DNA of 54,459 nt, taken from Perkinsus olseni (Eukaryota). The DNA lies in NCBI GenBank assembly GCA_013115125.1, contig JABANN010000195.1, forward strand, positions 1-54,459, in the 5' to 3' direction. Numbering within the stretch: the first letter of the stretch is position 1; each line of letters starts with the position of its first letter. Below, in pieces: positions 19,801 through 22,800 of this stretch. Made by a program: the position numbers and the translations under genes. The notes under the pieces are model-generated. The model was not told where the DNA came from, searched no databases, and saw only the letters and a program-made list of their open reading frames with translations.

Positions 19801-22800
19801 GCTCCACTATGTTGGCGGATCGCCACACTCACAACCCCTCCCACTCACCGCTTCCTTGCCGATTTTGCATCCACTAGCGTCCAATAACCAAGTGGCCACC
19901 TCGGCGATGTGCACCTTGACAGTCCGTGTCGAGGCGTTTGGTGGGAGAGGAGTGAAGGCGGCCTCTCCGGTGAAGGTGATTGCGCCTCTCACGTCTCGGC
20001 TACCGATGTTCGGGTCGGGTGCCGGAGCGAAGACGCTAGCATCGAGGAGGGCTGAAAAGAAAAGGGCTGTGCCGAGAATTGAACTCGGGACCTCTCGCAC
20101 CCTAAGCGAGAATCATACCACTAGACCACACAGCCACGAGAAACAAACGACGCTCACCTCCCTCAACGAGGCAATCTTCCAACAACAAATAAAACATTGC
20201 CGTCTCCTCTGAGACGTCAACCGAGCCTCTCCCCAACGTGACCTCAGCCGACACCTCCTCCATGAACCCCAGCACACCGGATAATGACGCTACCTCGGAG
20301 GGCCTCGCCACTCCCTGCATACCTGACCAGCCGGACACTCTTCCACGTCGCCATCGATGCGCTCACCACAACATCACCAACCGCACTCGCCGAGACTCGC
20401 CCCCTCCCCTCTCACGTTTTAGCGTAGCGATGACACGCCCACTTTCAACAGCTCCTCGCTCCGGCAGATCCGCTTCGACCTTCAGAGCAGCAGCCGCCAG
20501 GGAGTGTTCCACAAAACCCTCAACTTCACACGAATTCGGGAACCTGCAAGAATTAATCGCTTCACCGGTGCCCTCCCACTAGCCGCCGTACTTGCTAGCT
20601 GCCTCGAGATCTCGCAGCACCCAAGGTCGCAGGACCGAGCCGAGATACACCTCGCCGGCCTCGACCATGCAATGCCTCCCCATGCCCACTGGGGTCACGC
20701 GGAAGGCGCACATACGGAAGGACAGGTCCACGTCCGCCTCGTCGCCGCCCATCACCAACGCCATAGACAAACGGTCAATGTACACCGACAGACCGATCCC
20801 CGGGGAGGCTTCGGCATCGGCAGAGGCTGGAGGGAGGTCGGGTATGCTCTCGGCGAAGTCCAGGAGACATCTCGTGAAGCTGCCGATTTGCTTGGGGTGC
20901 CACGCGGAGGGAGCAGTCAGGCTCGGTAGGATGAATTGCAACTCGAGTCTGTCCCTACTACTGGATAGGGACGATCGGCGGTCTGAGAGAGAGTAGACTA
21001 TTCCCCGGGTAATATGGGCACCAGTTAACGCATGAGTGGGCCAAACGTGAGAGCCCATGAGCCCTGCCAACGGTGATGCAGGCACTAATACAGGGCTAGA
21101 GCTTGCTAACCCCTTCTCACCATCACGCTGCATGTCGGATTGGACTCGCCATAAACTCAGCGACGCTGCAGCCTCGCCAGACGGCCCGCTTTGTGTCTCC
21201 AACAGTATTGTACGATCGTCGCCTGCCCAAGGAAGTGTCGGCCAACGACCGTCACTGCGCCACGAAATTACCCGCCATCCCACCTTCACAATCCGAAACA
21301 GCAAGTCCTCCAATCCGGCACGTGTTGCGCTGCACGACAAGGTCAGTGAGGAAAACCTTCGCTGTGCGCGAACGTGGCAAAGATTCCTCTTTCGACGGAT
21401 CTTTCAACCACAGGTTCACTGATACGCTCTTCGCTCGGAAGGCAGGGATGTCCTAAGCCCGGCAACACGACCGAATTTCGCGGCGCGCGACATCACATCA
21501 GTAGCCCACCACAGTGACCGGGCGCACCACCGGCTGATCCTCCCAGAGCCCGCTGCCTTCCGCAGACGTCGGAAGTGTTGGCAGCTTCAAGTTCATCACT
21601 TTGCAGACCACGTCCAGGTCCAGGCTAATTTCTATGTCTCCTAATGTGCTCTGCGGAGGCCCCTGAGAGGACGCCATCGAGTGAGGGTGGCAAGCAGACT
21701 GGAGTCCAGTCACTGGTCCCCACCTGCCCTGCTGTGATAGACACTGCGTCGTGATCACACCAGACGATCCTAGTCCACTCCCCCACAGCTGCTGACTTCT
21801 CCTCTGAAGACGAAAGGAGGTATGCTGGCGGTAGGTGGGCTAGAGCTAAGATGCGAATTAAGACCGATGAAAAAGTCACTCGACGAGCCACCTCCTAACC
21901 GGGTACATACGCAGAAATAAAGCGCCTCCGCAGTGAGGCGAGAAAATATAACAAGGGTGTGTAGCTCAGTGGTAGAGCGGCTGACTGCAGATCAGCAGGT
22001 CCTCGGTTCAAATCCGGGCGCGCCCTTTTACTAGCCAGTCCTAAAATTTCCGTTTCATCACAACCTCACAGCATCATTATTCTTCCACTGCTCCTCCACG
22101 CTCCACCCTCTCCTACCGGTGTATTGTAGGAGTCGGCAATGCTCCTCCACCAACCGATGAACCCCCCGGCGGTCGAAGAATACTTCCTCAAGGCCTGCTG
22201 CTGCTGCTGCCGAGGCCGGCTGAACGCCGATACTCGCTGGACACGAGTGTGGCGAGCTCGTTGGGGAGGAATCCTGCGCACAGCGAAGATTCGAGGCTCA
22301 GGCCGGGACACTCTGCCAATAAATGCTGCTCAAAACGAGTAACTCAGCTAACAACAGTCTCGGTAGACCAGCCGCAGTGGGCCGGCGGCTGACACTCGAA
22401 CAAGGGGTCTACCTTAGTGACTGCACTTCCATCATGCTGAGAGGAGTAGAACGAAGACTCTCTCCCCAAAGGCGACGAGGCCGAGCTTTGGGACTGACAC
22501 ATGAACGGAAAGCAGCATACAGGGGCATGCCGAGCAGACGTCTTTACTGGTTTCCTCTGATCGAACACTCGGGGCAGCCCACCTTGCAGTCCACCGGTGC
22601 GATACCCACACTCCAGCCAGCTTGACTTAAACGGAAGCTGCTCATCATCGACTCCCCCTCGTTAACGTCTTGTTCGCCGCCCGAGGGTGACCAGGAGTAC
22701 TCAATACTCAGGGACGTAAGGGTACCTACTACGACGACAGATAATCTCGCTCGCCCCCAGTAGAGGATCTCACCGAGGAGGATCGCCTCGGGTTGTTCCG

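Follow-up and report, generated by a model that had tools for sequence, protein, structure and literature searches.

How can a spliceosomal intron be removed from a messenger RNA precursor (pre-mRNA) when a transfer RNA (tRNA) gene occupies most of it, and how can a tRNA gene work on its own account in so narrow a space? This question is raised by contig JABANN010000195.1 of Perkinsus olseni (NCBI GenBank assembly GCA_013115125.1), which we analysed over its entire length of 54,459 nucleotides (nt), called the window in the following. Perkinsus is an alveolate that lives as a parasite of shellfish. On the reverse strand of the window, the gene for the autophagy-related protein ATG2 carries an intron of 106 nt (20052..20157), in which a 72-nt gene for tRNA-Pro(AGG) (20064..20135) lies in the same orientation as ATG2. 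A first-pass annotation, made from the letters of the sequence, had described the intron as essentially one tRNA gene. The tRNA does fill most of it, and "essentially" has to be taken as 72 of the 106 nt. We suppose, with a probability of about 70%, that an independent tRNA gene of RNA polymerase III (Pol III) is nested in a real intron, which deletions have trimmed to the minimum that both machineries tolerate, and that the sharing of signals between the two is a by-product of this trimming.

The anatomy can be followed base by base on the reverse strand. According to the spliced gene models, the upstream exon of 165 nt (20158..20322) ends with GTT GAG GGA G, that is, with LVEG and the first base of an alanine codon. 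The 5′ splice site GTGAGC (20152..20157) then opens a leader of 22 nt (GTGAGCGTCGTTTGTTTCTCGT, 20136..20157), which is at once the 5′ end of the intron and the 5′ leader of the tRNA. After the tRNA comes a trailer of 12 nt (TTTTCTTTTCAG, 20052..20063), in which the T-runs following the discriminator base, the pyrimidine tract and the 3′ splice site are all packed, and the downstream exon of 203 nt (19849..20051), taken from the same models, begins with CC CTC CTC GAT (A-LLD). This order of parts had been proposed at the first pass, and the sequence, ARAGORN and Rfam agree on it. If the intron were retained, the open reading frame (ORF) of the upstream exon (20102..20362) would be closed by an in-frame TAG (20102..20104) overlapping U33-A34-G35 of the anticodon loop, so that the unspliced frame does stop inside the tRNA, as had been claimed. 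The downstream exon lies in another frame (ORF 19807..20112), and because 106 leaves a remainder of 1 when divided by 3, removal of this phase 1 intron restores the frame. Excision of 20157..20052 yields ...FYLLLEDCLVEG-A-LLDASVFAPAPDPNIG..., to be read as ...CLVEG-A-LLDASVF.... The same junction is found in two annotated P. olseni proteins, P0001 and P0004, both of which span it (junction score 1.0 against each). When residues 264-383 of P0001 are compared by BLASTP with the P. marinus protein P0002, the alignment passes over the junction (302/303) without a gap, LVEGALLDA facing LVEGSTLDA. The in-frame joining expected by the first-pass annotation is thus present in the proteins and collinear with the orthologue.

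With such borders, 20157..20052 is most likely a real GT-AG intron of the U2 type belonging to ATG2, as far as can be judged from sequence. Its non-tRNA part amounts to 34 nt, and the shortest of the 37 introns that we modelled in this gene has 45 nt, those next to it measuring 93 and 248 nt; since 34 nt is less than the minimum of 45 nt, some of the requirements of the tRNA-bearing intron must now be provided by the tRNA. Traces of the tRNA may also be seen in another assembly of P. olseni, in which protein P0003 ends with ...CLVEG on a contig of 903 nt and protein P0008 begins with ALLDASVF on a contig of 692 nt. From the lengths of these two contigs, the assembly appears to break on both sides of the intron, as expected from repeated sequence, for example a multi-copy tRNA gene. 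Sequencing runs were also consulted. Among the 24 runs listed, 13 (eight labelled RNA or "RNA?" and five of unknown kind) contained 0.45-0.54 of the words sampled from 18600-21400, where 0.543 is expected if only exons are represented; one "RNA?" run with 0.73 and one RNA run with 0.18 were outliers. Such shares are suggestive of spliced transcripts in general, and because the words cannot be placed they are not counted as evidence for this particular intron.

Which gene is the host? An ORF of 274 residues on the reverse strand (20579..21403) encodes a protein matching P0001, a partial P. olseni protein with 92% identity over the aligned part, and P0002, which carries the Pfam domain ATG2_CAD. 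The 90% cluster of P0001 has six members, including P0004, a P. olseni protein of 1731 residues named autophagy-related protein 2, which scores 146.3 bits on ATG2_CAD where the cutoff is 50. Single ORFs of the window gave one weak match (19.9 bits, one of ten ORFs). By tblastn, spliced models and exact 6-mer seeds, P0004 is collinear with the reverse strand of the window from 26545 to about 13609, over a gene with at least 37 introns, and each of the tblastn pieces has 63-100% identity. Without changing strand, the homology extends from the N-terminal region as far as the C-terminus, and the exons are open with GT-AG borders throughout; it is to be noted that our splicing script was restricted to the donors GT or GC and the acceptor AG, which partly accounts for this uniformity. 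By homology, then, the host is the ATG2 gene of Perkinsus, as the first-pass annotation had named it. Our intron models were guided by homology, with 26 introns up to residue 1237 of P0004 and 11 more from residue 1255 on. The stretch 18707..18576 stands outside these models, and the gene models in the database conflict there: P0004 changes its frame within a few bases in 18576-18707 (the seeds 18728-18687 and 18691-18659 overlap), and P0001 continues straight. This conflict comes from either a tiny intron, an insertion or deletion between gene copies, or an error of prediction. Several of the ATG2 gene models in the database are fragments. The 37 modelled introns range from 45 to 768 nt, with 16 of them at 45-61 nt. 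By eye, GTGAG, with which the tRNA-bearing intron begins, is the commonest donor pentamer of the gene (10 of 26 introns); position by position, the same 26 donors have G at +3 in 15, A at +4 in 13 and G at +5 in 20.

The tRNA gene is itself well formed. The match to Rfam RF00005 extends over the full model (1-71) with 56.9 bits against a gathering score of 29 and an E-value of 2.9e-10, far beyond chance, and the gene conforms to the covariance model in its cloverleaf and its 7-nt anticodon loop. The Rfam alignment shows the usual GG of the D loop and G-TTCAA..C of the T loop, with two pairs of the D stem marked as non-standard; these canonical loops look like those of a nuclear tRNA. Within the tRNA, TGGTCTAGTGG resembles an A box, and G53-T54-T55-C56-A57-A58..C61, read from the Rfam alignment, resembles a B box, both being judged against the general consensus sequences; the stricter B-box pattern GGTTCRAWYCC has no match in tRNA-Pro. 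Directly after the discriminator C begins TTTTCTTTT, a T4-C-T4 run offering the four or more T residues that define a Pol III terminator, and the other two tRNA genes of the window (Cys and Trp) likewise have a T-run directly at their 3′ ends. Since tRNA-Pro has such Pol III signals of its own, independent transcription is the default reading, and the Pol III start would be expected within the 22-nt leader. Because the T-runs follow the discriminator base directly, the same bases would be both the Pol III terminator and the pyrimidine tract. The tract in question has pyrimidines at 12 of the 12 positions from −15 to −4, the best among the 26 introns scored, and this double use had been pointed out at the first pass. 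ViennaRNA predicts an acceptor, an anticodon and a T arm, the pairs of the acceptor stem having a probability of 0.67 in the pre-mRNA context.

If the entire 106 nt is spliced out, where can the branch point be? Ahead of its final AG, the 12-nt trailer is free of A. In the last 27 nt of the intron there are only two A residues before the AG, at −17 (20068) and −19 (20070), which belong to ACAG (20067..20070) in the 3′ strand of the acceptor stem, and the next ones upstream, at −28 and −29, are in the T loop. Therefore, a branch point, if it is an adenosine, must lie inside the tRNA at −17, −19, −28 or −29, which agrees with the placement made at the first pass. The general consensus of branch sites is yUnAy, with the adenosine at roughly 10-40 nt from the AG; in the 25 other ATG2 introns no convincing branch motif emerged, the best 4-mer being TCGA in 8 of the 25. 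The acceptor stem also holds an AG (20068..20067) 15 nt upstream of the modelled acceptor, which by hand arithmetic of the frame could serve as an alternative in-frame acceptor adding five residues; the length of the P. marinus orthologue argues against its being the main one. Another observation concerns the exons. Their ends next to the intron, 20158-20181 (CGTTGAGGGAG) and 20028-20051 (CCCTCCTCGATG), are complementary to each other with −17.7 kcal/mol, first in rank among 26 introns and followed by −15.6, and this pairing together with the acceptor stem of the tRNA would place the two splice sites inside an internal loop. It is a weak observation made post hoc, with a small margin and as one of several features examined.

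As we infer it, the locus would work as follows. Pol III would make tRNA-Pro from the internal promoter (type 2) formed by the A and B boxes, starting in the leader of 22 nt and stopping at the T-runs; RNA polymerase II (Pol II) would make the ATG2 pre-mRNA, from which the whole intron would be spliced out. An intron harbouring an indispensable tRNA gene would shrink under deletion pressure to whatever either machinery needs, and since about half of the ATG2 introns stand at the minimum of 45-61 nt, deletion pressure seems to be the best account of the tight fit. The signals would then overlap, the 5′ splice site falling within both the tRNA leader and the presumed TFIIIB footprint, the Pol III terminator coinciding with the pyrimidine tract, and the branch point being an A of the acceptor 3′ strand or of the T loop. 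Such a neighbourhood may have its price. On the Pol II transcript, the predicted tRNA fold would hide the only candidate branch adenosines and present sites to the tRNA-processing enzymes ribonuclease P (RNase P) and ribonuclease Z (RNase Z), so that some ATG2 pre-mRNA may be lost; a cost to ATG2 is thus plausible.

Is this tRNA gene alone in ATG2? An intact gene for tRNA-Cys(GCA) is found by ARAGORN and by Rfam (68 bits) on the forward strand at 21954..22027, antisense to ATG2, in an ATG2 intron of 313 nt (22116..21804), and there Pol III would meet Pol II head-on within the gene. A third gene, tRNA-Trp(CCA), found by ARAGORN and Rfam on the reverse strand (28243..28314), seems to be intergenic, between ATG2 and a kinase gene. 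A permissive Rfam scan of 13000-30000 (E<=10) added no tRNA to these three and gave seven weak matches to unrelated families. A B-box-like pattern is in excess: it occurs seven times in the window, where 0.17 is expected and 100 shuffled sequences had two at most. One of the seven lies within tRNA-Cys. Two (23534 and 23674) share the ATG2 intron 23746..23522, one of them being followed by TTTTT; 25542/25543 is a single palindromic site in the ATG2 intron 25996..25460; further sites are at 3544 and 5604. Those beyond tRNA-Cys look like relics of tRNA 3′ halves; they could stem from tRNA genes in decay or be scars left by the tRNA-targeting Dada transposons reported for P. marinus. Just upstream of the ATG2 start, 26848-27006 on the reverse strand gives a weak match to the Rfam tmRNA family of the tRNA clan (18.6 bits, E-value 4.6e-4, far under the gathering score), probably spurious or another tRNA-like relic. 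With a second tRNA gene and relics in other introns of ATG2, both missed by the first-pass annotation, the locus looks like a case of a general habit rather than a device built for a purpose.

Several points weigh against our preferred reading of an independent tRNA gene in a trimmed intron. That the intron is actually spliced was deduced from the frame, from homology and from gene models, and the supporting proteins are all gene predictions: protein searches with residues 230-400 of P0001, among proteins of near length, and with residues 250-368, among shorter ones, returned only proteins annotated from Perkinsus genomes (two and one matches, respectively), none of them derived from a transcript over the junction. 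In the face of the missing branch consensus, the placement of the branch point inside the tRNA is an argument by exclusion that assumes an adenosine. This copy of tRNA-Pro could be silent in transcription. The supposed age and shrinkage of the intron are conjectured from the DNA of the single species P. olseni. Among metagenome contigs, none of 61 pattern matches was confirmed as a related locus, and a degenerate 23-nt pattern for a conserved peptide hit at least 117 metagenome loci, none of which, among those listed, had a tblastn match to P0001 or P0002. Lastly, in a human reporter, mRNA abundance went down when nuclear tRNAs were put into an intron (Hoser et al. 2020, PMC7722341), so that "harmless passenger" may be too mild a term for tRNA-Pro.

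How else could the arrangement be explained? One may ask whether the intron is older than its tRNA at all. A tRNA gene with short flanks might have entered the coding sequence of ATG2 and been tolerated there, the flanks offering GT at one end and a T-run with AG at the other, and thereby have created the intron. Being a statement on origin, this is compatible with the reading that we prefer, and it gains from the same shortness of the non-tRNA part: since 34 nt is below all of the modelled introns, mere entry of the tRNA into a minimal intron would not yield the present lengths unless other changes followed. The genomes of Perkinsus also provide the material, as P. marinus reportedly has over 500 gene copies for only five types of tRNA, along with Dada transposons, which insert into tRNA genes (PMC3706591). 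On the other hand, the sequence and a repeat search reveal no target-site duplication or terminal repeat at the borders, and shrinkage of an older, longer intron accounts for the same facts. P. marinus P0002, compared at the protein level, is collinear across the junction. We regard such a creation of the intron as doubtful, though as the least unlikely of the alternatives. Far less probable, to the point of being nearly dismissed, is that the two exons are not joined in cis, because we look at a broken gene copy or because the tRNA punctuates two transcripts with TTTTCTTTTCAG as a spliced-leader acceptor. Spliced-leader trans-splicing does exist in Perkinsus (PMC3101222, PMC9399869), and the fragmentary ATG2 models in the database also count in favour of this reading; however, the homology runs collinearly on one strand through open exons with GT-AG borders, the junction is free of gaps against P. 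marinus, and the 12-nt trailer without an A would leave no branch point for trans-splicing once RNase Z had cut.

The remaining alternatives let the tRNA and the message compete for one and the same RNA. Pol II transcripts with tRNA-like structures are known substrates of RNase P and RNase Z, as with the mascRNA of MALAT1, and some or all of tRNA-Pro might similarly be cut from ATG2 pre-mRNA or from the excised and debranched intron, a "tRNA-tron" whose output would follow ATG2 transcription. The sense orientation, the share of the intron taken by the tRNA and the fold predicted in the pre-mRNA context agree with it, and tRNAs derived by splicing have been raised as a possible but unstudied outcome for sense intronic tRNA genes (PMC4999229). 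Yet the gene keeps all of its Pol III signals, with which an RNA coming purely from an intron could dispense, the antisense tRNA-Cys cannot arise from the host transcript, ATG2 would hardly be expected to reach the transcription rates of a tRNA gene, and intronic tRNA look-alikes in the human reporter were not processed to tRNAs from the Pol II intron (PMC7722341). We therefore hold this source of tRNA-Pro to be improbable. Hardly more credible to us is that selection has preserved the arrangement for the mutual exclusion of tRNA folding and splicing: the fold would bury the branch adenosines, RNase P and RNase Z would cut and ATG2 mRNA would fall, whereas splicing would go on when the fold is prevented, and autophagy capacity would be tuned in this way. 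All the candidate branch adenosines do lie in the acceptor stem or the T loop, the acceptor stem is predicted to pair with the probability given above, a retained intron would bring an in-frame stop, nuclear tRNAs in the reporter intron did reduce mRNA (PMC7722341), and the complementarity of the flanking exon ends is the strongest of the 26. But plain compaction predicts the overlap of signals equally well, tRNA genes and relics in other ATG2 introns, in either orientation, speak for neutral residence, and the rank of the complementarity is subject to the reservations made above. In its strictest form, the locus would be a two-way switch, at which either the spliceosome opens the acceptor stem and branches at its A, or the cloverleaf is the first to form, whereupon RNase P and RNase Z excise a working tRNA-Pro and the message is destroyed; this we consider as improbable as a tRNA cut from the host transcript. 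If it were true, the state of tRNA processing would set the output of ATG2, a lipid-transfer protein of autophagy, and some tRNA-Pro would be derived from Pol II. On balance, the interpretation given at the first pass is partly supported: its anatomy holds, and the coupling that it envisaged, in which tRNA folding or cleavage by RNase P or RNase Z might compete with splicing or the tRNA might be released from the lariat, is speculative. The independent Pol III gene in a trimmed intron is the reading that we retain.

Two repeats lie elsewhere in the window. At its start, 1-242 holds at least eight head-to-tail copies of a 24-nt unit. The segments 30768-31246 and 32909-33380, about 2.1 kb apart and 93-98% identical, form a tandem duplication that covers the gene for an ATP-synt_C proteolipid subunit, for which the Pfam ATP-synt_C match at 30966-31391 has 101 bits.

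What can be learned from such an intron? Nested tRNA genes are usually viewed as passengers in long introns, and here little intron besides the tRNA remains. Each signal for splicing, be it the 5′ splice site, the presumed branch point, the pyrimidine tract or the 3′ splice site, has to make do with bases that also belong to the Pol III leader, the tRNA body or the terminator. The locus therefore offers a compact natural test case for several questions. Is an A that is hidden within a tRNA stem accessible to the spliceosome as a branch point? Is a tRNA fold within a coding pre-mRNA attacked by RNase P and RNase Z? Can a decoding tRNA mature from a spliced intron, a possibility raised for Caenorhabditis elegans? 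The intron further gives a lower bound on what introns of Perkinsus need, and it is a warning for builders of gene models, as contigs and predictions break at introns filled by a tRNA. Should Pol III transcribe the tRNA gene independently and without any effect on splicing, the arrangement would be a tidy curiosity.

How, then, does this intron stand beside known systems? Mirtrons and intron-hosted small nucleolar RNAs lack promoters of their own, and for their production the host has to be transcribed and spliced. As in these, a small structured RNA in the sense orientation fills most of a short intron, and by analogy splicing and maturation of the small RNA would act on the same RNA. Unlike them, tRNA-Pro has elements resembling A and B boxes and a T-run terminator, and so does not belong among RNAs lacking their own promoter and terminator. 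MALAT1 mascRNA is cut by RNase P and RNase Z at a tRNA fold that these enzymes recognise within a Pol II transcript, and this is the very step that would compete with ATG2 splicing; mascRNA is, however, a tRNA-like relic at the 3′ end of a transcript, unlike a decoding tRNA-Pro in the intron of a coding gene.

Tandem to these comparisons come tRNA-shaped elements that do reside in introns. The so-called nimtRNAs, nuclear look-alikes of tRNAs that are intronic and mitochondrial-derived, act on splicing and the mRNA level of their hosts, and they differ from the present case in being relics of mitochondrial DNA that are not processed to tRNAs, lie in long introns and enhance splicing (PMC7722341). 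The element in ATG2 is a canonical tRNA-Pro gene, nuclear-type by the appearance of its loops, with a terminator and in an intron of 106 nt. In the partially covered literature, we met no account of intronic tRNA genes in Perkinsus or of a spliceosomal intron reduced to a tRNA. The closest relatives seem to be the nested tRNA genes of the nematode C. elegans. Out of 609 tRNA genes in this species, 44% lie within introns, which does not depart from chance, and the sense orientation accounts for 56% of these intronic genes; the promoter and the orientation of the host gene affect Pol III occupancy of such genes (Sagi et al. 2016, PMC4999229). Common to both organisms is a complete Pol III tRNA gene placed in either orientation in the intron of a Pol II coding gene. 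What separates the Perkinsus intron is that it has only 34 nt beyond the tRNA, with overlapping signals for splicing and Pol III and a branch point supposed to lie in the tRNA; no such minimal case is stated in the part of the C. elegans study that was covered (PMC4999229). The arrangement in ATG2 is thus a member of the known class of nested intronic tRNA genes, and a very tight one.

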